From a bacterium (GTDB lineage Bacteria > Patescibacteriota > Dojkabacteria > GCA-016699595): a stretch of DNA of 64,000 nucleotides. Where the stretch lies: assembly GCA_016699595.1 (NCBI GenBank), contig CP064982.1:572340-636339 (forward strand). Reading direction: 5' to 3'. The position numbers and the translations under genes were made by a program. Below, piece after piece: positions 8,058 through 60,632 of the stretch; the stretch's first letter is position 1, and the number at the start of each line of letters is the position of its first letter. The notes beneath the pieces are model-generated. The model saw only the letters and a program-made list of their open reading frames with translations, searched no databases and was not told the origin of the DNA.

Positions 8058-8102
8058 GTTTATTAACTTTATATAAAAAGATTCAAAATAATTAAACACC
8101 TT

Positions 8103-8174
8103 GGGAGCGTAGCTCAATGGTAGAGCAGTTGCCTTTTAAGCAATTGGTTCTGGGTTCGAGTCCCGGCGCTCTCA
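8103..8174 (+). tRNA. tRNA-Lys (anticodon UUU)
   Basis: Acceptor gggagcg/cgctctc, discriminator A. Anticodon stem-loop gttgc-ctTTTaa-gcaat. T-arm ctggg-ttcgagt-cccgg. Confidence 0.8.
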
Positions 8175-8390
8175 AATTCCGATTTTTCACGCAGTATCCA
8201 AATGACCTAAGTTTGGAAAGTGGAAGCGAGAAACAACTCGTTAAAATAAAGAGTATATTAAGGTGGTACCGTTCCAATTCGTGACTATAAGTATAATGCA
8301 TAAATTTGCTTGATATTTATAATCAAAATTTGAACCCTTAAGCAATTTCTAAATCAAATTAGATTTCGCTTGAGGGTTTTTTTGTTAATT
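8175..8390 (+). promoter_or_regulatory. candidate T-box riboswitch leader (ultrashort Stem I, CCU specifier) upstream of the UDG-like/UDG-like/proS operon
   Basis: AUUAAGGUGGUACCG at 8257-8271 is a close match to the T-box consensus AAUUAGGGUGGNACCGCG. The proposed antiterminator is AAGG / UGGUACC bulge / GUUC (8260-8274) pairing with GAAC-CCUU (8332-8339). A competing terminator lies at 8333-8383. The hairpin ccaaa-UGACCUAAG-tttgg (8198-8216) displays CCU followed by A in its loop, as in the ultrashort Stem I of actinobacterial ileS T-boxes. Confidence 0.4.
8333..8383 (+). terminator. intrinsic terminator-like hairpin plus U-tract (the terminator arm of the candidate T-box)
   Basis: aacccttaagc (8333-8343) pairs with gcttgagggtt (8368-8378) as an 11-bp stem containing one G·U and a 24-nt loop. 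It is followed by ttttttt (8377-8383), 18 nt before the ATG at 8401. Confidence 0.4.
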
Positions 8391-8400
8391 GAAATATTTA

Positions 8401-9180
8401 ATGAGTATTATTACATACACAAAGAAAGAATTAGGGTCATATACTTGTAGGCTCGACTTAGATCAAGTTTTTAATAATAGCACTGAAAGAGTTAGGTTTG
8501 AATCTAAATGGTTGGATTTTATGAATTCAGATATTTGGAACTCAGAAGTCTTTTGTAAAGATAAAAATATAATTCAATATTACCATAAATCCTGGATTCC
8601 AGAAAAACCTTCAAGGAAGCCCAAACTACTTTTACTCGCTGGAAATCCAGCACCACACTCTACTTATAAAAGCGTTTGTTTTGCCCAGGAAAATAATAAA
8701 GGGGAACATAGGTTTTGGAAGGTTTTGAGAGAATCAAATATACTCGAAATAAATTCTCGATTAGATGGTATAAAAACTCGTTTTTTTGATGAAGAATATA
8801 CCTCTGATTTTCAAGTCGGGATTGAAGTCTTATTCTCATTGCCTACCCCTGCAAGTCATAAACTTTGGTCGGGTGTTCAAGGGATCAAGAAACTGTTTGG
8901 ACAAAAAGCTTTTGAAAAGATATATATAGAAGAACAAGCAAGGCTTAGATTTGTTATCCAAAACTATTTGAATAATGGTGGAACAATCGTCACTTTTCAG
9001 AGAGATGTATTCGAATCAATCAGTAATATCAAGTATAATTATCAAAATGTACTTAAAGGAGAAACAGTTGTAAAGTTAGGATCTGTCACTATATATGCTG
9101 CACCACCAACGAGACTAATGTATTCTCAGTCAATGAAAGATGTACTACAGAAAGTTAATTCAATAGCTCAACATGGATAA
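8401..9180 (+). CDS. MUG/TDG-like (family 2-like) uracil-DNA glycosylase superfamily protein with an ~80-aa N-terminal extension
   Basis: KPKLLLLAGNPAPHSTYKSVCFAQENNKGEHRFWKVLRESNI parallels E. coli Mug [38 protein letters not shown] (G-x-NP motif, RFWKV). The ATG at 8401 is preferred over the track's TTG at 8389. Confidence 0.55.
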   Translation: MSIITYTKKELGSYTCRLDLDQVFNNSTERVRFESKWLDFMNSDIWNSEVFCKDKNIIQYYHKSWIPEKPSRKPKLLLLAGNPAPHSTYKSVCFAQENNKGEHRFWKVLRESNILEINSRLDGIKTRFFDEEYTSDFQVGIEVLFSLPTPASHKLWSGVQGIKKLFGQKAFEKIYIEEQARLRFVIQNYLNNGGTIVTFQRDVFESISNIKYNYQNVLKGETVVKLGSVTIYAAPPTRLMYSQSMKDVLQKVNSIAQHG

Positions 9181-9895
9181 AAAGGTTCAACTACAAAATT
9201 TGATTCAAGAAATGTCACAAGATTCTGCTTGTGAATCTATGTTTGAAATTAATAATGATAAAAACCTGATAAACCAATTCAAGTACTCCACCTTTATTCC
9301 AAATAAGTGGTTTGACTGGCCGAAGTACTCAGAATCAAAAATTATGATAGTTGGTCAAGATTGGGGACCGTACGCAATTTTGAAAAGAAAATTTATAGAC
9401 ACATTTGAAATAGAATCTAAAGGCAAAGATTTTGACTATGACAAATTCTTGTATCAAACATTCTCTTCAAGAACAGAAAAGTTTATACAAAAATCTATTG
9501 AATATTGGTTTGAGATAGTGCATCATACTCAGATGAATTTTCGAGATTGGGATAATTATTTTTTTACAATTGCAGTGATGTTTTGTAGATCTGGCAATTT
9601 ATTTAGAGGAAGCACTAATTTTGATGCAAAAAGATCTCTTGCAGTATCAAGGTACTATCTTAAAAAACAAATTGAAATAGTACAACCTCAAAAGATAATG
9701 ACCTTAGGAGGTCTATCTTTGAGACAAGTCTTTTCAATTTTAGGAATTGAAGATAAAAGAAAATTAAGTGAAATTGTATTGCATAATGATAAATTTAATT
9801 GTCAAGAAATCGAAATTTTCCCAAACTTTCACCCTGCTTCACATGTTGACAAGAGAATAATTAGAGACAAGTTTCAAAACATCATTCCTTACTAA
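9173..9895 (+). CDS. divergent uracil-DNA glycosylase superfamily protein
   Basis: A hydrophobic strand followed by GQDWGPY (KIMIVGQDWGPY) resembles UDG motif A (GQDPY). The C-terminal FPNFHPASH resembles motif B (HPSPLS). It overlaps the upstream gene by 8 nt, suggesting translational coupling. Confidence 0.45.
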   Translation: MDKKVQLQNLIQEMSQDSACESMFEINNDKNLINQFKYSTFIPNKWFDWPKYSESKIMIVGQDWGPYAILKRKFIDTFEIESKGKDFDYDKFLYQTFSSRTEKFIQKSIEYWFEIVHHTQMNFRDWDNYFFTIAVMFCRSGNLFRGSTNFDAKRSLAVSRYYLKKQIEIVQPQKIMTLGGLSLRQVFSILGIEDKRKLSEIVLHNDKFNCQEIEIFPNFHPASHVDKRIIRDKFQNIIPY

Positions 9896-9924: not shown

Positions 9925-11148
9925 ATGACATACACAAAAAACTTCATAAAAACAAAAAAAGAAATAAGTTCAGAAATCGAATCAAAAAATGCACAGCTCT
10001 TGATCAAAGGTGGATTCATCAGACCTCAAATGGCTGGAGTATATATTTATCTCCCACTTGGACTTAGAGTTTTGGAAAAAATTACAAATGTTGTTCGCAA
10101 ACATATGGACGAAATAGCTAGTGAAATGCGAATGACAGCACTACAACCAAGAGATATTTGGGAGAAAACAAATCGACTTGATACTGTAGATGTACTTATG
10201 AAAACAATTGGAGCAAATGAAGTTTCAAAACAAAAGTCTACAAACGAATATATACTTGGATGCACACACGAAGATGTATTGACAAATATGCTTACCGAGT
10301 TTGTCCAAGGTGAATCTGAACTTCCAATATATGTTTACCAAATCCAAAATAAATTTCGAAATGAAGCAAGAGCAAAATCTGGACTTATGCGCGGAAGAGA
10401 ATTTCTGATGAAAGATCTATACTCATTTCATACGACTTACGAGGATTTGATGAGATACTATGAGATCGTCAAACAAAAATACATAGATATATTTGAAGAG
10501 CTTGGAATTGGAAACGATACATTTGTAACATTAGCTTCGGGAGGAGATTTTACAGATAACTTTTCTCATGAATTTCAAATGATTCTTGAAAGTGGAGAAG
10601 ATGAGATACTTATTGATAGAACGAATAAAATTGCCTATAATCTTGAAATTCTCGACGAGAACAAGGCAAAAAAAGTTGATCTGGAAAATGCAAACAAACT
10701 TGGAGTTGATTTTTCAAAGCTAGAAAAGGTCAAGGCCTCTGAAGTGGGAAACATATTTCCAAATGAAACTAAGTACTCAAAACTACTTAATCTATCATAT
10801 ACAAATTCAGATGGCGTGAAAAAATACGTTCACATGGGAAGTTATGGCATCGGAGTCTCAAGACTTATGGGTGTGATTGCAGAGAAATTCCATGATCCAA
10901 AAGGACTTACTTGGCCAGAGAATGTAGCCCCTTTCAAGTATCATATATGTACACTCGCAAAATCCGAATCTGAACTTTGTTTCCAGAATGCAAGAAAGTT
11001 TTATGTTGAGCATGAAACAGAGTCTCTTTGGGATGATAGATTTGATACTGCAGCTGGAGAAAAATTTGCAGATGCTGATCTAATTGGATGTCCAGTGCGA
11101 ATTGTCTTCTCTGAAAGAAATCCTGACGGAGAATTTACAAAAAGATAA
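9925..11148 (+). CDS. proS: prolyl-tRNA synthetase, minimal form without the INS editing domain
   Basis: LLIKGGFIRPQMAGVYIYLPLGLRVLEKI start; class II motifs FRNEARAKSGLMRGREFLMKD and YVHMGSYGIGVSRLMGVIAE; C-terminal KFADADLIGCPVRIVF. Only 407 aa. Confidence 0.85.
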   Translation: MTYTKNFIKTKKEISSEIESKNAQLLIKGGFIRPQMAGVYIYLPLGLRVLEKITNVVRKHMDEIASEMRMTALQPRDIWEKTNRLDTVDVLMKTIGANEVSKQKSTNEYILGCTHEDVLTNMLTEFVQGESELPIYVYQIQNKFRNEARAKSGLMRGREFLMKDLYSFHTTYEDLMRYYEIVKQKYIDIFEELGIGNDTFVTLASGGDFTDNFSHEFQMILESGEDEILIDRTNKIAYNLEILDENKAKKVDLENANKLGVDFSKLEKVKASEVGNIFPNETKYSKLLNLSYTNSDGVKKYVHMGSYGIGVSRLMGVIAEKFHDPKGLTWPENVAPFKYHICTLAKSESELCFQNARKFYVEHETESLWDDRFDTAAGEKFADADLIGCPVRIVFSERNPDGEFTKR

Positions 11149-11639: not shown

Positions 11640-14600
11640 TTATTTCACATCTGCTATTGTTTGGAAAGATTTCTCAAGTTGAACCAATCTTTCTTCAAGA
11701 TCATGGATTTTTTGATCTTGTTTCTCAATTTTCTCTTCTGTATTGAGAACTTTGGATACAAGCACTTTGAAACTTGATTGCCCGTTAGCTAAAGTATCAA
11801 TTTGAACTTGTTGTTCTTGGACTGCATTTATCAAAGCATATATAATCGCATTTGAATCATACCTGTAGTAACCATCTTCTCCAAGACTAATCGTCCATTG
11901 GCCTAGTGCTGTTTGATTGATGTCTTGAGCTATAAGTCCAACATAACTTTTGTCATTATCTGGTGCATATATACTTTTGCCATTATATTTAAATGTCTTT
12001 GGATCAATTTTCATAATAGCATCTAGACCTATATCAAAATCTTTGATATCCTTTTTCAACCTTTCGTCAGACAAAACAGTCCAAGCACCTCCTCCAATTT
12101 TTTCTGCTGTTCCTGCACTTCCTACAAATCTTGCTACTTGAGTTCCATCTACAAAGAAGTTTAGCTCAGCATCAGCTAATGATGTGATTCCAGAGTCTGT
12201 ATCGCCTATACCATTGGCACCAAATACAATTCCAGATGTTTGTGAAGAACCTGAAACTATAGAACCTCCAGCTAATTGCAATGCTCCTTCTATCTTTGCA
12301 GATCCTGATACATGCAGCTTTTGTGTAGGTGAGGTAGTGCCTATACCAACATTGCCCATAATGTAAGAACTATTTGTGCCATTCACATGTAGTATGCCCT
12401 TTATATAGGAATCTCCAGCAGTACCATCTACTTCAAATTTGAGTACACCATCGTTTCCATAAAAAGCCCAACCTTGTGTTGCAGGAGAGACCCATACATC
12501 CGTATATCGACTAATGCCATCGAAATGTGTCATTATTGGCATAGAAGTTACATAATGATTTGCATCAACAATATATAATTTGGAATTTAGCGATAGCCTA
12601 ACATCTCCCATGACATCCAATTTGTAACTAGGTGTTGTCCCAATTCCGACTCTACTATTGACATCATCATAGTAAAGACTAGAGTTAGACTTCCATACAC
12701 TTGTATTTGCGTCATAATATAGTGTTTGTCCTTCAGTTGCTGTAGGTAGTGTTGGTATCGTTGTCCATGCTGTTCCAGTACCTGTTGTTTTAAGGTATTG
12801 TCCATTTGTACCTGCTACATTACTTGAATCATACAACGCTCCTTCTACCCTTGCAGATCCTGATACATGCAGCTTTTGTGTAGGTGAAGGAGTCCCTATA
12901 CCGACAGAACCGGTGCTTATATTTGTATTGACACCATTTATACCTGTCCCAAAAATCAAGTTACCTATACTAAGCTGATTTGATCCATCCAATATTGGGG
13001 CATCTATATTATATCCAATTAATATATTCCTAGAACCAGTAGTTTCTAACCTACCTGTAAAGTATCCAAGAAATACATTGTCGGCACCGCTTGTCAAAGT
13101 TTTTCCATTCATATAACCTATTAATGTATTGTTTCCACCTGTAGTCAAAGATAACCCTGATTGATATCCGACTAAAGTAGTATTACTGAAAGTTGATAAA
13201 CTATCTGTACCCCTGCCTGACTGAAGTCCAATTGCCACATTTACTTGACCAGTAGTAAATCTCAAAGCTTCACCACCTATTGCCGTATTATTTCCACCTG
13301 TAGTTTTAAGTAATGTATAATGACCTATAGCCACATTATTGTTTGTAGCACTGGAGTTATTGTACATTGCACCATTGCCGATTGCTATAGTATCAGTTAT
13401 AGTGGTAGACGATCCGAACAATACATTTGCACCGATTGCCACATTTCCAGTACCAGTTTTAACTGAGCTCAAGGCATTATAGCCTATTGCAGTGTTGATA
13501 TAACCAGTAGTGATCGATGTACCAGTATTATTTCCCATCAAAACGTTGAACTTGCCAAAACTACCTCCTGTCAGCGTCGTGCTATCCCCTGCATTATTCC
13601 CTGCAAAGAGATTCGATGCGTCATTAGATGTAATCTCAAGAAGTGCAATGCCTGCGCTATCTTGAAATTGCATCAAAGCCTTGTCTACGGTTTGAGTGGC
13701 ACTTGCTTTTATAATTACTTGCTCAATATTTTCATTTCCTGCTACGAGTAACTTAGCCCCTGGTGTCGGTGTCCCAATTCCGACTCTACTATTTACATCA
13801 TCATAGTAAAGACCAGAGTTAGACTTCCATACACTTGTATTTGCATCAAAATATAGTGTTTGTCCTTCATTTGCTGTAGGTAACAAAGATACTCCTGGAG
13901 CTAATACAGTCCAAGCTGTACCATTTCCAGTACTACTTAAGAACTGTCCATTTGTACCTGCTACATTACTTGAATCATACAATGCTCCTTCGATCCTTAC
14001 AGATCCTGATACATGCAGCTTCTGTGTAGGTGACGGAGTCCCTATACCAACAAAACCGGTGCCCGAGAAGGTTAAGCTATTGGTATTCAGATTTATATCT
14101 GTATTCTTCGTAAGATTCCCTCCTAGTTGGAAGTTAGATAGCGTAGATTGCGTTAAACCATTGTCAGAAGTGTACTTTGTATCTATATCAGCAACACACT
14201 CAAAACTAGATCCATTCCAAGAAAGTTTTTGATCTGATAAACAAACAGGTGAATCTACAGAAATAGTTCCAGTAGATGATATAGGTCCACCAGTAAGCCC
14301 AACTCCTGTAGAGAGACTTGTCAATGTGCCATTAGTTGTATTACTACATATCCAAGAGCTCGTCGTTAAGTCATATCTAAGAATCTGAGTATCACTGCAA
14401 GAATTTAGTGAGTATCTTACAGTATTTACTGCTATTACTTCAGCTTTTAGTGGACCTACTGCCGAGAAAGTAACCATTGAGCCTGGATTTATATTTTGTG
14501 AATTTGAGCCGTCAGTTACGACAAAATAACTATCCTCACAATCAAAACTTACTCCGCTCCATGTAAGCCTTTGGTTTGTTGCGCATGTATGTGCATCAAT

Positions 14601-16574
14601 TTGAAATGTAGTTCCAATCAAACTTACTCCATTTCCTGCATTATATGTAGTATCATTATCTGGTAATGTAATAGTATAAGTTGAACTATCTGACATAGTC
14701 AAATTCAAAGTTCTTAAAGTTCCACCAGATGTAACTGCACTTGTTGAAATCGTTGCAGAAGACAAAAACTTATCTGCCGGTAGCATTATAGAATTTACTA
14801 TGGAGTGACCATTTGTTCCAGTTATGGCTAATGTTCTAGTTTGAGAGTCATAGCTCAAATTTTGTGAATCTGCATCAATTATACTTTTCGATAAACTAGG
14901 AGTGCCATTCTGTCCCGTTAAATTGATTGTATGAGTGATTGCCCCAGTACCAGAATCTTGAATAGTCAAATCATCACTATATTTATCAAAATCATTAAAT
15001 GAAGTGCATGCCCATGAACTTGAATTGTATATTAAAAATTCTCCATTTGAACATGGGTTCAATGTAACTATAGGATTTTGCCCATTACTTACACCTATCA
15101 CACCTGAACCTGTAACTGACAATGTACCTGCATTCGAAATCTCATTTGATGAATCTATCCCAATACCATTACCTGCACTATAAATATACTTTGATTCAGG
15201 AATGCATACCCAATTTGAACCGTTGTACACGAGAAGTTCACTTGTGCTACAAGCTTTGAGACTAAAAACATTCGAGTTTAATGTTATACCATCACCAGAA
15301 GCATAGGTTGTATCGGCATCAAGATCTAGGGAACAAATCCAATCACTTCCATCATACTTCAATATCTCTCCACTTGAGCAAGGCTTAATAGAAAATACAT
15401 TTGAAGATAAAATTAAACCTGAACCAGAAGTGTAAATATCATTATCATCAGGAATATTTAGAGCAATATCAGGCAATCCTCCTGAACGAGTTAATGTCAA
15501 AATCCTATAACCTGATTGCAATTCAGACAAAGTAGCTCCTGTCAAATATAACTCTGCAGGCAATGCCGGCAGTATTATCGAACCACCATTTGTCAATGAG
15601 ACAATGTTTCCATCAATTGTTAATTCCTGTGAATCTGTAGGAATAATAACTGAATTTCCACTCGATAATGTCAAAGTGCCATTATTATAGTTTAGGCTTT
15701 GCAAAACTTGATTTGGCAAAACTATAGAATTGCCATTTGATATAGTTATTGTATTGCCAATAATTTTCAAATCTTGACTATCTTTGCTAAATTTCAAAAT
15801 CATATTTGCAAGGTCGAGTTGATTCCCTCTTTCAATGCTTAAATTTGAACCTTCTAAGCTGATCTTTTGATTGTCACTAGCAAAAGCGGCTTCTACCTCT
15901 GCGCCTTGCAGATAACTTCTAATAACGCTTTCTAGAAACTCCGTTCTTTGTTGAATCAAGTCGCTTTTCTCGTCATTACTCAAGAATTTACCTACAGACA
16001 AATCTTGAATCAAATTGAGATTTGATTTTGTACCGATAAATTCACTGTACACTATATCTTTGCATCCAAGCGATGTTGGGTAAAATGAAATATCATTTTG
16101 AGTACCAAAAAATCCTTTCAAATTTGCAATAAATCCTTGTTGAATAAGCCTACGACTGCAAGCAACATTGTCAAATGTGCCTTTTGCATCATCGTGTCCT
16201 TGACATGATGAAACTTCGTTTCCATCTTCAGACATGGTTGAATAGCAGAGCTGCAAGTATGACTTTTTTGGCAAAGCAAAGATACCCGGATTAATGTTTA
16301 TATCAAATTTACCATTCCTGATTTCAACATTATCAAAATCCCAACTTTCTATTAGTCTTGCATCGGAAGAATTTTTATCAAATACTAAGATTCTGAAATT
16401 GGTTGCTTTTGTTTTATCGTTTCCAAAGTCACCATTAATCGTTACTTTGAGTGGTTTTGCAAAAGTTAATAAAAAAAAGATTGCTACTAGTAGAGCAAGA
16501 AGCAATAATTTAACAGAAAGGCGACTTCTCGCATTTGCAATATTCAATTTTTTTGAATTAATATAGTTTGCCAA
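11640..16574 (-). CDS. giant (1644 aa) tail-fibre-like surface protein with a C-terminal S74-type intramolecular-chaperone domain
   Basis: N-terminal signal/TM segment LSVKLLLLALLVAIFFLLTFA. Three VGIGTPSPTQKLHVSGS-(R/K)-EGAL modules. Seven or more CxxxxLxYxGSxWxC repeats. Gly/Asn/Thr-rich beta-helix-like tracts. C-terminal SDERLKKDIKDFDIGLDAIMKIDPKTFKYNG...VGLIAQDINQ...GYYRYDSNAIIYALINAV matches the peptidase S74 / endosialidase chaperone domain, and is followed by a coiled-coil tail. Confidence 0.8.
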   Translation of the reverse strand: MANYINSKKLNIANARSRLSVKLLLLALLVAIFFLLTFAKPLKVTINGDFGNDKTKATNFRILVFDKNSSDARLIESWDFDNVEIRNGKFDININPGIFALPKKSYLQLCYSTMSEDGNEVSSCQGHDDAKGTFDNVACSRRLIQQGFIANLKGFFGTQNDISFYPTSLGCKDIVYSEFIGTKSNLNLIQDLSVGKFLSNDEKSDLIQQRTEFLESVIRSYLQGAEVEAAFASDNQKISLEGSNLSIERGNQLDLANMILKFSKDSQDLKIIGNTITISNGNSIVLPNQVLQSLNYNNGTLTLSSGNSVIIPTDSQELTIDGNIVSLTNGGSIILPALPAELYLTGATLSELQSGYRILTLTRSGGLPDIALNIPDDNDIYTSGSGLILSSNVFSIKPCSSGEILKYDGSDWICSLDLDADTTYASGDGITLNSNVFSLKACSTSELLVYNGSNWVCIPESKYIYSAGNGIGIDSSNEISNAGTLSVTGSGVIGVSNGQNPIVTLNPCSNGEFLIYNSSSWACTSFNDFDKYSDDLTIQDSGTGAITHTINLTGQNGTPSLSKSIIDADSQNLSYDSQTRTLAITGTNGHSIVNSIMLPADKFLSSATISTSAVTSGGTLRTLNLTMSDSSTYTITLPDNDTTYNAGNGVSLIGTTFQIDAHTCATNQRLTWSGVSFDCEDSYFVVTDGSNSQNINPGSMVTFSAVGPLKAEVIAVNTVRYSLNSCSDTQILRYDLTTSSWICSNTTNGTLTSLSTGVGLTGGPISSTGTISVDSPVCLSDQKLSWNGSSFECVADIDTKYTSDNGLTQSTLSNFQLGGNLTKNTDINLNTNSLTFSGTGFVGIGTPSPTQKLHVSGSVRIEGALYDSSNVAGTNGQFLSSTGNGTAWTVLAPGVSLLPTANEGQTLYFDANTSVWKSNSGLYYDDVNSRVGIGTPTPGAKLLVAGNENIEQVIIKASATQTVDKALMQFQDSAGIALLEITSNDASNLFAGNNAGDSTTLTGGSFGKFNVLMGNNTGTSITTGYINTAIGYNALSSVKTGTGNVAIGANVLFGSSTTITDTIAIGNGAMYNNSSATNNNVAIGHYTLLKTTGGNNTAIGGEALRFTTGQVNVAIGLQSGRGTDSLSTFSNTTLVGYQSGLSLTTGGNNTLIGYMNGKTLTSGADNVFLGYFTGRLETTGSRNILIGYNIDAPILDGSNQLSIGNLIFGTGINGVNTNISTGSVGIGTPSPTQKLHVSGSARVEGALYDSSNVAGTNGQYLKTTGTGTAWTTIPTLPTATEGQTLYYDANTSVWKSNSSLYYDDVNSRVGIGTTPSYKLDVMGDVRLSLNSKLYIVDANHYVTSMPIMTHFDGISRYTDVWVSPATQGWAFYGNDGVLKFEVDGTAGDSYIKGILHVNGTNSSYIMGNVGIGTTSPTQKLHVSGSAKIEGALQLAGGSIVSGSSQTSGIVFGANGIGDTDSGITSLADAELNFFVDGTQVARFVGSAGTAEKIGGGAWTVLSDERLKKDIKDFDIGLDAIMKIDPKTFKYNGKSIYAPDNDKSYVGLIAQDINQTALGQWTISLGEDGYYRYDSNAIIYALINAVQEQQVQIDTLANGQSSFKVLVSKVLNTEEKIEKQDQKIHDLEERLVQLEKSFQTIADVK

Positions 16575-16668: not shown

Positions 16669-17352
16669 ATGCAAGTTCAAATTGATTCATCCTGGAGAGA
16701 AATACTTCAAAATGAATTTGAAAAAACATATTTCAAAAAATTAGTTGAAAAGGTAAAGAACGAATATAGTCATTTTGAAATATTTCCAGAACCAAGAAGG
16801 ATATTTCGCGCATTCAACCTAGTTCCATTTGACAGAGTAAAAGTTGTAATTTTAGGGCAAGATCCTTATCATACTCCAGGAGTTGCAGATGGTTTGGCAT
16901 TTTCTAGTAAGTTCGGAAACAAAGTTCCGCCAAGCTTGACTAATATCTATAAAGAAATCCGTAATGAATTTAACTTTGAAAATTACAAGAATAAAAACAA
17001 TCCTGATCTAACCAGGTGGGCTACTCAAGGAGTCTTTTTGTTGAATAACAGTTTAACTGTAAAGTCTGGCATTGCAAACTCGCACTCTCAAATCGGTTGG
17101 AATATTTTTACTGATGCAGTTATAAGAGCCCTTGCAAGTAATAGAAACAACCTAGTTTTCATGCTTTGGGGAAACTTTGCCAAAAGTAAAAAAGAAATTA
17201 TACTTACAAACTCTGGAAGTAATCCTCATTTAATTTTGGAATCTGCTCATCCTTCCCCTTTTTCAGCAAACAATGGATTTTTTGGTAATAATCATTTCAA
17301 AAAGTGTAATGAATTTTTGAAACTTCATCATGAAACTGAAATTCAATGGTAA
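16669..17352 (+). CDS. ung: uracil-DNA glycosylase, family 1
   Basis: VKVVILGQDPYHTPGVADGLAFS (water-activating loop), LLNNSLTV, LVFMLWGNFA and HPSPFSANNGFFG are all canonical UNG motifs. Confidence 0.9.
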   Translation: MQVQIDSSWREILQNEFEKTYFKKLVEKVKNEYSHFEIFPEPRRIFRAFNLVPFDRVKVVILGQDPYHTPGVADGLAFSSKFGNKVPPSLTNIYKEIRNEFNFENYKNKNNPDLTRWATQGVFLLNNSLTVKSGIANSHSQIGWNIFTDAVIRALASNRNNLVFMLWGNFAKSKKEIILTNSGSNPHLILESAHPSPFSANNGFFGNNHFKKCNEFLKLHHETEIQW

Positions 17353-17353
17353 A

Positions 17354-17818
17354 ATGAGACCCATGCTTCCAAAGTCAAACCGGATCAAAACTGAAAAAGA
17401 ATTTAAGCAAGTATTTCGAAATTCAAAAAAGATTGAAACAGAGCATTTCAAAATATTTATACAAATTGTAGAAGCTTATCATGATAAGCCTAGAATTAAT
17501 ATCCAAAAAATTAAGTCAATGTATGATGAATCTGGAAAATTTGTTGGAAATGTAAGTGAGTCTCAATCGAATAATGAACCAAGTAAAAATTTAGTTAAAC
17601 CAAATCAAATTGGAAAACTTGGAGTAATAATTTCTGCAAAATTTGGCAAAGCTCATGATAGAAATAAATGTAAAAGAAGAATTAGGAATTTGTTGAATCA
17701 CTATGTGAAAGAAAATGCTGTGAATATAGTAGTTCAGGTGAAAAGTAACATAAAAGATTTTGAATTTGAGAAATTGAAAGCGGAATTAGATATTATTCTC
17801 AAGCAGCCTACCAATTAA
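17354..17818 (+). CDS. rnpA: ribonuclease P protein component
   Basis: MLPKSNRIKTEKEFKQVFRNSKK and GVIISAKFGKAHDRNKCKRRIRNLL match the RnpA RNR/K-rich signature. The ATG at 17354 is preferred (track lists 17330). There is an ~50-aa insertion relative to typical RnpA. Confidence 0.7.
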   Translation: MRPMLPKSNRIKTEKEFKQVFRNSKKIETEHFKIFIQIVEAYHDKPRINIQKIKSMYDESGKFVGNVSESQSNNEPSKNLVKPNQIGKLGVIISAKFGKAHDRNKCKRRIRNLLNHYVKENAVNIVVQVKSNIKDFEFEKLKAELDIILKQPTN

Positions 17819-25614: not shown

Positions 25615-26529
25615 ATGTCAATTCCAACACATTTACAAATAATGTTGCCTTTATTGAAGTTATATTCAGACAACAATATCCACCATAGAACAGATTTTAT
25701 AGATAAAATTTCTGATCATTTTAACTTAACCGATGATGAGAGAAAACAAAAAGTAAATTCAGGTTGGACAAGAATATCTGATAGAGTTGATTGGGCAATA
25801 ACATTCTTAAAATCAGCTAAATTAGTTGAATCACCTAAAAGGGGATATACAAAAATTACACGACGTGGAAAAGAATTATTAAAAACTGGAGTTGAATCTT
25901 TAGACTTAAATAAAATAAAGGAATTATATCCAGATGTTATGGAAACTGCCTTTTGGAATCCAGAACTAAGAACTTCAACAAATGCTACTGCTACAAATAT
26001 AAATAATGAAAACTATACACCTGACGAACATTTAGCTCAAATAGTTGAACAAAAGAAACTTACAATTTATGCAGAAATTGAAGATCAGATCAAAAGAATT
26101 TCTCCCAAAGCATTTGAAAAATTAGTTGTAAAATTATTAATTGCTATGGGTTATGGAACTGAGGAATTTAGTCAAGTTACTCAATATAGTAACGATGGTG
26201 GTATTGATGGAATAATCCAAGCAGATAAACTTGGTTTTAGAAAAATTTATGTACAAGCCAAAAGATATTTAAGCAACAATGTTGGAAGAACTGAACTTCA
26301 AAATTTTGTAGGTGCAATGGGTAAAGTTCACGAAGGAATCTTTATAACTACATCAAAGTTTAATAGTAATGCACTAGAGTATATCCGTGACATTTCGCAA
26401 AAAGTTATTTTGATTGATATAAACAAACTTGTTGAACTAATGCATGAATACAACCAAGGTGTTTCTGTTCGAGATAATATTGAAATAAAAGGAATAGATG
26501 GGGATTACTTTGATGAACTTGAATCATAG
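25615..26529 (+). CDS. mrr: Mrr-family type IV (modification-dependent) restriction endonuclease
   Basis: N-terminal winged-helix Mrr_N-like region. Catalytic core AFEKLVVKLLIAMGYG...SNDGGIDGIIQADKLGFRKIYVQAKRYLSNNVGRTELQNFVGAM...GIFITTSKF matches Mrr_cat (D-x-QAK). Confidence 0.8.
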   Translation: MSIPTHLQIMLPLLKLYSDNNIHHRTDFIDKISDHFNLTDDERKQKVNSGWTRISDRVDWAITFLKSAKLVESPKRGYTKITRRGKELLKTGVESLDLNKIKELYPDVMETAFWNPELRTSTNATATNINNENYTPDEHLAQIVEQKKLTIYAEIEDQIKRISPKAFEKLVVKLLIAMGYGTEEFSQVTQYSNDGGIDGIIQADKLGFRKIYVQAKRYLSNNVGRTELQNFVGAMGKVHEGIFITTSKFNSNALEYIRDISQKVILIDINKLVELMHEYNQGVSVRDNIEIKGIDGDYFDELES

Positions 26530-60575: not shown

Positions 60576-60632
60576 AGCCTATTATGATATATAGTGTTTA
60601 TTATAAGTCGGCACCACCCTTGTCGGTAAGTT

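Follow-up and report, generated by a model that had tools for sequence, protein, structure and literature searches.

At the centre of this analysis are two overlapping genes, ORF1 and ORF2 (open reading frames 1 and 2), in a 64,000-nucleotide (nt) stretch of a Dojkabacteria genome (Patescibacteriota; GenBank assembly GCA_016699595.1, contig CP064982.1, positions 572,340 to 636,339), referred to throughout as the window. ORF1 (8401 to 9180, + strand) encodes 259 amino acids (aa) from an ATG start, and its product has a predicted uracil-DNA glycosylase (UDG) fold closest to family 2, that of MUG and TDG; a listing of reading frames also offers a TTG at 8389, and homologues begin at the ATG. ORF2 (9173 to 9895, + strand) encodes 240 aa with a predicted UDG fold closest to family 4. 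The two genes share the 8 nt ATGGATAA (9173 to 9180, + strand), which hold the start of ORF2 and the stop of ORF1. Behind them, after a gap of 29 nt, comes proS (9925 to 11148, + strand), the gene for a short prolyl-tRNA synthetase (ProRS) of 407 aa; ahead of them lies a T-box-like leader (8176 to 8400) that directly follows a tRNA-Lys(UUU) gene (8102 to 8175, + strand; ARAGORN, Rfam tRNA score 72 bits). A third glycosylase gene, ung (16669 to 17352, + strand), stands 7 kb away. An original prediction, made from the sequence alone, had described both reading frames and their overlap just as they are found here, and had called ung a textbook family-1 enzyme, a fitting description: NF003592 scores it at 291.7 bits against a cut-off of 162 (4e-87), TIGR00628, the other NCBIfam equivalog, at 260.2 against 185.75, and its translation carries both GQDPYH and HPSPFS. 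ORF1 and ORF2 are judged to be genuine genes because they have homologues in public data and because, compared with a sister strain of ~97% identity, dN/dS values of 0.38 and 0.33 place them under purifying selection. The account that we consider reasonably probable is that they encode independent, non-paralogous UDG-superfamily glycosylases of base excision repair, and that their position beside a T-box-like attenuator and proS is particular to this species.

For ORF1, the argument is carried by structure. An AlphaFold2 model built from the family alignment (pLDDT 88.8, pTM 0.89) was compared with the PDB using Foldseek, giving human TDG as the top match (E 2.6e-6), with E. coli MUG further down at 1.1e-4; all of the 49 best PDB matches were members of the UDG superfamily, with TM-scores of 0.6 to 0.7 per target, and the UDG-like domains fused to phage DNA polymerases, whose catalysis is unproven, also matched. 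The modelled protein is an alpha/beta/alpha UDG fold closest to family 2. Structure prediction had been proposed as a check on the UDG fold of both proteins, with assignment to some other fold as the refutation, and for both it returned UDG matches. Three motifs stand out in the sequence, G81-N-P-A-P85, H103-R-F-W-K-V108 and PPTR at 235 to 238, the first two of which had already been read as Mug/TDG motifs (GNPAP, RFWKV); the register of these two is set by hhalign, which places the GNPA of the family profile on GINPG of E. coli Mug (1MUG sequence) and HRFWK on NRFWK (E 4e-4). Within motif A, A80-G-N82-P-A84, the catalytic-type Asn stands third as it does in GINPG, and the first position is not Gly. 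The PPTR segment has no His and conserved Thr and Arg residues; it lies beyond the reach of the hhalign alignment and was placed on motif B by eye. Family 6, the hypoxanthine-DNA glycosylases, is without the motif-1 Asn (PMC5387724) that ORF1 retains as N82, and an NCBIfam scan of ORF1 at E<=1 returned the 'mug' model alone and no hypoxanthine-DNA glycosylase model.

The family to which ORF1 belongs is considerably larger than a word-index search suggests. Such a search gave 12 relatives. An exhaustive HMMER profile search at E<=1e-3 raised this to 355 clusters, defined at 50% identity, of which 94 remain at E<=1e-30; in nearly all of the 355 the match spans the full length of the protein, including its N-terminal 70 to 75 residues. 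Across 64 full-length members G81, N82, S87 and W106 are invariant and P83, A84, F94, H103 and T237 nearly so, and every member that bears a name, one from Anaerolineae among them, is called 'hypothetical'. The UDG core begins near residue 72 to 76, leaving an N-terminal extension of ~65-75 aa, which was rightly noticed in the original prediction and put there at a slightly excessive ~80 aa; in the AlphaFold2 model its residues 1 to 65 form two beta-hairpins and a long helix. To judge by the family alignment, this module of ~70 aa is a family trait and no quirk of the present gene. Some members are longer still, at 380-530 aa (P0117, P0133, P0141, P0145 and P0165), and among the 64 scanned two contain a TY-Chap2 domain (YbjN/T3SS-chaperone-like, T3SS being the type III secretion system), so fused architectures occur.

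Several results weigh against placing ORF1 in the vicinity of family 2. The hhalign comparison with Mug has a probability of just 34%. No Pfam model, PF03167 (UDG) included, matched ORF1 at E<=1, and no Pfam or NCBIfam model matched above its threshold; the nearest approach was TIGR00584 'mug', which covers the same motif region at E 0.034 and reaches 13.8 bits where 402.6 are required. Among the 64 family members, Pfam UDG gave a weak match in one (E 0.0024), none reached an NCBIfam model, and TIGR00584 was matched at E<=0.1 by one. Searches of PDB sequences with the single sequence and with profiles of 13 and 64 sequences were equally unproductive, and the link to family 2 therefore comes entirely from the structural comparison and the hhalign alignment to Mug. 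A MUG/TDG-like family with an added N-terminal module, unseen by Pfam and NCBIfam models, would be a modest but real novelty.

ORF2 is the more readily recognised of the two. Its AlphaFold2 model (pLDDT 92.7) has the family-4 UDGs 4ZBX, 1UI1 and 1L9G as top Foldseek matches in the PDB (E 2e-7 to 8e-6), and PDB sequence and profile searches lead to the same family, with 4ZBX at 5e-12 followed by 1L9G and 1UI0. The Pfam UDG model (PF03167) covers residues 54-223 with 28.1 bits against a gathering threshold of 24.3. The NCBIfam family-4 models NF040953 and TIGR00758 align to the C-terminal half at 38.8 bits (cut-off 250) and 25.2 bits (cut-off 125.3), all 44 family members scanned match these models likewise far under the cut-offs, and the NCBIfam ung models gave no match to ORF2. 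A word-index search found 89 relatives, and the family occurs in many Patescibacteria-type metagenome assemblies, where its annotation is that of a UDG-family protein. The GQDWGPY variant of motif A and the C-terminal HPASH on which the original prediction had remarked are present as motif 1 (61 to 67) and motif 2 (220 to 224), and all 44 family sequences have G61-Q-D-W-G-P66, R139, R145-G146 and H220-P221 unchanged. Aligned by hhalign with the T. thermophilus enzyme UDGa (1UI0 sequence; E 6e-8), I133 pairs with the motif-3 residue Asn80; HPASH aligns to the FHPA of 1UI0 and 4ZBX.

Other features of ORF2 are less favourable to a straightforward glycosylase reading. The alignment with UDGa spans residues 127-224 alone, and the match of motif 1 to families 1 and 4 was drawn by eye; the motif-3 Asn column holds M, V, I or L in 40 of the 44 sequences (M, V or I in 39) and N in four, and the equivalent of the water-positioning Asn89 is not conserved in the family. 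With the motif-3 Asn gone and the Asn89 equivalent not conserved, uracil activity of ORF2 is not assured. The Patescibacteria-type relatives have 0-3 Cys per protein, so the four 4Fe-4S ligands of family 4 are gone, and the Clostridia-type relatives P0097-P0100 have 6-8 Cys (including C-x2-C) together with the motif-3 Asn, and already carry GQDWGP. These last look like the iron-sulfur-containing ancestral state of the clade. On the alignments, ORF2 would be a Patescibacteria-centred offshoot of family 4 that gained a family-1-type Q-D doublet and whose small-genome lineage then lost both the iron-sulfur cluster and the uracil-reading Asn. Such a relative of family 4, in which a QD doublet occurs naturally and neither the cluster nor the Asn that reads uracil remains, is again modest but real as a novelty; when the literature was searched for GQDWG and GNPAP(HS), neither turned up in a UDG context.

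How these proteins would act can be sketched by analogy with better-known members of the superfamily. ORF1 would behave in the manner of MUG and TDG, flipping its target base, either a pyrimidine that is mismatched or damaged or a purine that has been deaminated, out of the duplex, with the invariant motif-1 Asn82 positioning the attacking water, F94 stacking on the base, Arg238 of PPTR serving as the wedge that fills the gap in the helix, and no motif-2 His being used; its N-terminal module of ~70 aa may add a contact to DNA or lesion. ORF2 would be a hybrid of families 1 and 4, built on a family-4 scaffold free of an iron-sulfur cluster, in which Asp63 of GQD activates water as a general base, as in UNG, and His220 of HPA stabilises the leaving base. 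Since the Asn that reads the N3/O4 face of uracil is lost, its base preference may be broader than uracil or differ from it. The canonical ung would cover the bulk of uracil, and ORF1 and ORF2 would widen the range of lesions covered; the adjacency of the pair, their 8-nt overlap and their shared leader would amount to a local accident of gene order. It counts against this scheme that all catalytic roles were assigned by alignment or analogy. Non-canonical substrates, as the original prediction had proposed, are possible because ORF2 is without the motif-3 Asn and ORF1 lies outside every curated model. The further expectation that three UDG-fold genes in a small genome are surprising was too strong: they are notable, not anomalous, and several families per genome are common elsewhere: Bradyrhizobium has at least 4 (PMC5449639), and Deinococcus has several UDGs (PMC9796141).

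The genomic neighbourhood bears on whether the two genes belong together. A diverged duplication was rejected as the origin of the pair, the family profiles having no similarity in profile-profile comparison (hhalign). Neither the ORF2 partner nor proS lies near the ORF1-family gene in any of five other contexts (L001, L002, L003/4, L006-8, L075), and the same holds, for the ORF1 partner and proS, in three of three ORF2-family contexts (L009/10, L011/12, L013/14). Instead, the neighbours vary and often belong to repair or house-cleaning (NUDIX, MGMT/Ada, HhH-GPD, photolyase, 5'-3' exonuclease). The order ORF1-ORF2-proS was found only here and in the ~97%-identical strain, in which (L015) the overlap is also kept. 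Because the eight other contexts are without partner and proS, co-regulation with proS looks species-specific, and the pairing and the proS link, as far as gene order tells, are a feature of this species and no conserved module; the suggestion that the pair forms a unit regulated with an aminoacyl-tRNA synthetase gene is thus not borne out. A caution against leaning heavily on this is that adjacency was judged on ~8 independent contexts.

Three other explanations of the proteins have to be set against independent repair genes. The least probable is a dedicated two-protein module, a heterodimer or sequential partners deliberately co-regulated with proS: both strains keep the 8-nt overlap, a single leader precedes ORF1, ORF2 and proS, and UDG-fold enzymes can dimerise, as BdiUng does, but the adjacency is missing in all eight other contexts, the two families are far apart in size and distribution (12 versus 89 word-index matches), and their profiles share no similarity. 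Very improbable, too, is that ORF1 and ORF2 are catalytically dead folds that bind DNA, uracil or apurinic/apyrimidinic sites. That the ORF1 model resembles the phage-polymerase-fused domains, that ORF1 falls outside all curated models and that ORF2 has neither of the two Asn residues used by family 4 would all suit such proteins; the residues that perform chemistry in families 1 and 2 (N82 of ORF1; Q62, D63 and H220 of ORF2) are nevertheless invariant, and selection has been purifying on both genes.

An antiviral role is improbable as well, though it draws on recent precedents. Either or both proteins would then excise modified bases from phage DNA in the manner of Brig1 and Brig2. Brig1 has the family-4 UDG of S. 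tokodaii as its best structural match and is changed at the base-reading Asn position (PMC11078745), and phages with modified thymidine are countered by Brig2 and by further divergent proteins of UDG-like type (bioRxiv 10.1101/2025.10.29.685425). ORF2 likewise matches family-4 UDGs best and is without the uracil-reading Asn, some homologues lie near an AbiEii gene (L011) or a restriction-endonuclease-like HSDR_N_2 gene (L003), and the window itself contains an Mrr-type endonuclease gene at 25615-26529. Against this, PADLOC returned no match (and PHROGs nothing useful), the genes sit here in a housekeeping block of rplS, tRNA-Lys and proS, and most other contexts are of repair or house-cleaning genes and not defence islands; furthermore, the invariant GQD and HPA are motifs of uracil-type chemistry, and the ORF2 family is spread through many Patescibacteria-type metagenome assemblies under a UDG-family annotation. 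Independent repair glycosylases remain the preferred reading of the two proteins.

The spacing of the locus suggests how its genes are expressed. An intrinsic terminator ends 16 nt before the ATG of ORF1, ORF1 and ORF2 overlap, and proS follows closely, so that ORF1, ORF2 and proS are probably carried on one transcript that must pass the terminator. The tRNA-Lys gene is probably co-transcribed with them, since the gap from terminator to ORF1 is too short to hold a promoter. Within the leader, the pair of alternative structures expected of a T-box is present around the core AAGGUGGUACCG. The antiterminator (8258 to 8341, + strand) consists of helix A1 (8258-8263/8336-8341), a 7-nt bulge UGGUACC (8264-8270) directly 3' of A1, and helix A2 (8271-8274/8332-8335), which is extended by an inserted hairpin of ~45 nt; it is the minimum-energy fold in ViennaRNA once the 3' arm of the terminator is absent or blocked. 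The terminator (8333 to 8385, + strand) dominates the fold of the full leader, whose minimum free energy is -52.0 kcal/mol, and has a stem at 8333-8343/8368-8378 followed by seven U. As the unbroken 3' strand of the antiterminator is also the 5' arm of the terminator, the two structures are mutually exclusive. A UGGN-ACC bulge abutting A1 in an A1/A2 antiterminator is the defining geometry of the T-box discriminator (PMC7583486). The sequence GGTGGTACCG has one exact match in the window, and in shuffled sequences the bulged geometry arises 0.14 times per 64 kb, or ~2.5e-4 per given 225-nt leader. Further upstream a Stem III-like hairpin (8225 to 8242, + strand) recurs in the RNA folds with GGAAG just before it, which fits the RRRxG purine string (defined in the review PMC7583486), and a 7-bp hairpin with a 7-nt loop GACCUAA (8197 to 8217, + strand), present in every predicted fold, is a candidate minimal specifier, its loop presenting CCU, a Pro codon, and then A. 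Specifiers of the form NNU are the preferred ones among Pro T-boxes (TBDB preprint). From one strain to the other the 225 nt of the leader show no substitutions and one T fewer in the U-run, against ~12 changes that the synonymous rate would predict, given a dS of 0.05-0.06 in the adjacent genes (~2.7% nt difference).

The position of the pair between a putative T-box leader and proS, as originally described, therefore stands in respect of the location, the discriminator and the antiterminator and terminator, and falls short in respect of an Rfam match and a normal Stem I. These shortcomings, together with several null results, tell against a functional T-box. The Rfam T-box model (RF00230) was unmatched at E<=10 on both 501 nt and 225 nt of the leader, and the folds contain no K-turn, specifier internal loop, distal platform or Stem II, with only the 7-bp hairpin between the tRNA gene and Stem III. 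A long Stem I, which transcriptional T-boxes generally need (PMC7583486), is missing along with Stem II. No T-box-like motif precedes alaS, metG or hisS in the window, and literature searches for T-boxes in Patescibacteria found none. Relatives of proS were scanned at 37 genome and 22 metagenome loci, all of <=54% identity over the best segment (52% full-length); in the 37 loci from the genome collection TGGNACC did not occur at any credible position ahead of proS, and as only distant loci of the candidate phyla radiation (CPR) were returned, this says nothing about close relatives. Other matches to GGTGGTACC or to the bulge geometry (L023, L035, L016, L053) were dismissed because they lie inside or antisense to coding sequence, and a match with one mismatch at window position 60609 follows a stop codon and has no T-box context.

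The chance that the leader is a functional tRNA-sensing element is roughly one half. A strong competitor, to which we give somewhat less than an even chance, is an ordinary terminator of the rplS-tRNA-Lys unit that carries a T-box-like motif by coincidence and senses no tRNA, with transcripts of ORF1, ORF2 and proS arising by read-through or at a promoter that escaped recognition. The failure of Rfam at E<=10, the missing long Stem I, platform and Stem II, the absence of comparable motifs upstream of distant CPR proS genes (37 of 59 loci checked) and of alaS, metG and hisS in the window, and a literature in which no mention of a T-box with Patescibacteria was found are all as such a terminator would have them. 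It accounts poorly for an exact UGGUACC bulge whose flanking helices share a continuous 3' strand with the terminator 5' arm, a geometry rare in shuffled sequence, for a purine string before a Stem III-like hairpin, for a CCU-A loop ahead of a ProRS gene, and for a leader without substitutions where about a dozen were expected. More speculative, and in our view unlikely, is the fuller proposal of a transcriptional T-box that functions in drastically reduced form, comprising the CCU hairpin loop, Stem III and the discriminator, and that places both candidate glycosylases under the control of tRNA-Pro charging. Were it true, this would be the first T-box described in a CPR/Patescibacteria-type bacterium, and amino-acid starvation would induce the excision of bases that are not uracil. 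Even as no more than a T-box-like element of minimal form, the leader is for a CPR-type genome a modest but real new observation.

The host and the remainder of the window provide the setting for these genes. The window has a G+C content of 32.7%, ARAGORN finds no tRNA-Pro gene in it, and the closest relatives of its proteins are in Patescibacteria/CPR assemblies (Dojkabacteria, Saccharibacteria, Paceibacterota and Nomurabacteria). The organism is sparse in public collections: across 185,579 GTDB species genomes and JGI metagenomes the best ProRS match reaches 52% identity over its full length, and the near-identical strain (~97% nt identity; L005, L015) was found only in two Logan runs, SRR30164240 and SRR30164251. 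ProRS itself lacks the editing (INS) insertion and ends ~30 positions before the end of the NCBIfam model PRK12325, and its C-terminal residues before the stop differ between the strains, FTKR in the window (9925-11148) and SSARKGNC in L005 (1246-2481), as a short indel or a frameshift at the gene's 3' end might produce. Between proS and ung, on the opposite strand (11640-16574, -), lies the gene for a repeat-rich protein of 1644 aa whose last domain is a Peptidase_S74 'chaperone of endosialidase' (SDERLKKDI); modules of this kind are self-cleaving and typically form the C-terminus of tail-fibre and spike proteins in phages and of certain surface fibres. The ung gene overlaps the start of rnpA, the gene for the RNase P protein (17330-17818), by 23 nt (17330-17352), making it a second case of a glycosylase gene joined to a housekeeping transcription unit. 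Directly downstream of alaS, the Mrr-type restriction endonuclease encoded at 25615-26529 combines Mrr_N and Mrr_cat domains.

New branches of the UDG superfamily have often brought unexpected chemistry or roles, such as the cross-linking of UdgX to DNA or the acid activity of DR0022. The present findings overturn nothing in current understanding, and offer testable leads in enzymology and RNA biology. The ORF1 family, with ~355 clusters and every named member hypothetical, lends itself well to the definition of a further UDG family. ORF2 shows in nature a design, the QD doublet on a family-4 scaffold, that had earlier been made only by mutagenesis, and bears on how catalytic strategies are swapped among UDG families and how metal cofactors are lost in bacteria with small genomes. 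The leader, if functional, would widen the known range of T-box riboswitches and of their minimal architecture.

Set beside known systems, the locus combines familiar parts in unfamiliar ways. With transcriptional T-boxes, including the glyQS-type without Stem II and the actinobacterial type with an 'ultrashort' Stem I, the leader shares the 7-nt bulge at A1, the competition of antiterminator and terminator, Stem III with its purine string, a downstream aminoacyl-tRNA synthetase gene and a Pro codon in a loop; it differs in going unmatched by RF00230, in having no K-turn, specifier internal loop, distal platform or Stem II, in the ~45-nt insertion in helix A2, in its CPR-type host, and in that the first two genes behind it are those of DNA glycosylases. 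Brig1 and Brig2, compared by description, resemble the two proteins in being divergent UDG folds, weak or invisible to sequence models and altered in their base-reading residues, whereas ORF1 and ORF2 lie here outside any defence island or mobile-element context and go unmatched by PADLOC. To family 2, whose motif definitions are taken from PMC5449639, ORF1 is tied by its best structural match, by a motif-1 Asn in the same register (xGNPA versus GINPG), by the (H/N)RFWK helix, and, on an alignment by eye, by a candidate motif 2 that is Pro/Ser/Thr-rich with an Arg and no His (PPTR versus MPSSSAR); it departs from E. coli MUG and human TDG in a 4-residue insertion from motif 1 to RFWK, in its extra N-terminal module of ~70 aa and in having no Pfam UDG match.

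ORF2 is in turn poised between families. It has the scaffold of family 4 (1UI0 of T. thermophilus, 4ZBX of S. tokodaii, 1L9G of T. maritima), its HPA motif 2 and the C/T-R of its motif 3, but GQDWG in place of the family-4 motif 1 GE(A/G)PG, none of the four Fe-S Cys, I, M or V at the equivalent of Asn80, and an insertion of ~30 residues between motifs 1 and 3. With family 1 (UNG) it shares the Q-D doublet with its water-activating Asp, the P-Y that follows, and the His of HP(A/S), while differing in GQDWGPY and HPASH as against GQDPY(H) and HPSPLS, in matching no ung model and in having no motif-3 Asn. A described counterpart in concept is BdiUng (Blr0248) of Bradyrhizobium diazoefficiens, a proposed new UDG family with GQDPA on a cluster-less family-4-like fold and a broad specificity for U, 5-hydroxymethyluracil and xanthine (PMC5449639). 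Both unite a family-4-like fold that has no Fe-S cluster with a family-1-like GQD; BdiUng is without the classical motif B and has the Asn, where ORF2 has HPA and no Asn, and BdiUng was absent from the PDB sequence matches of the ORF2 profile and from the top 50 Foldseek matches. A parallel in design is artificial: when the E-G of a family-4 enzyme was replaced by a QD doublet, its catalytic efficiency rose above that of the single mutants (Xia et al. 2017, PMC5387724), and ORF2 carries that combination, likewise on a family-4 scaffold, as a product of nature.

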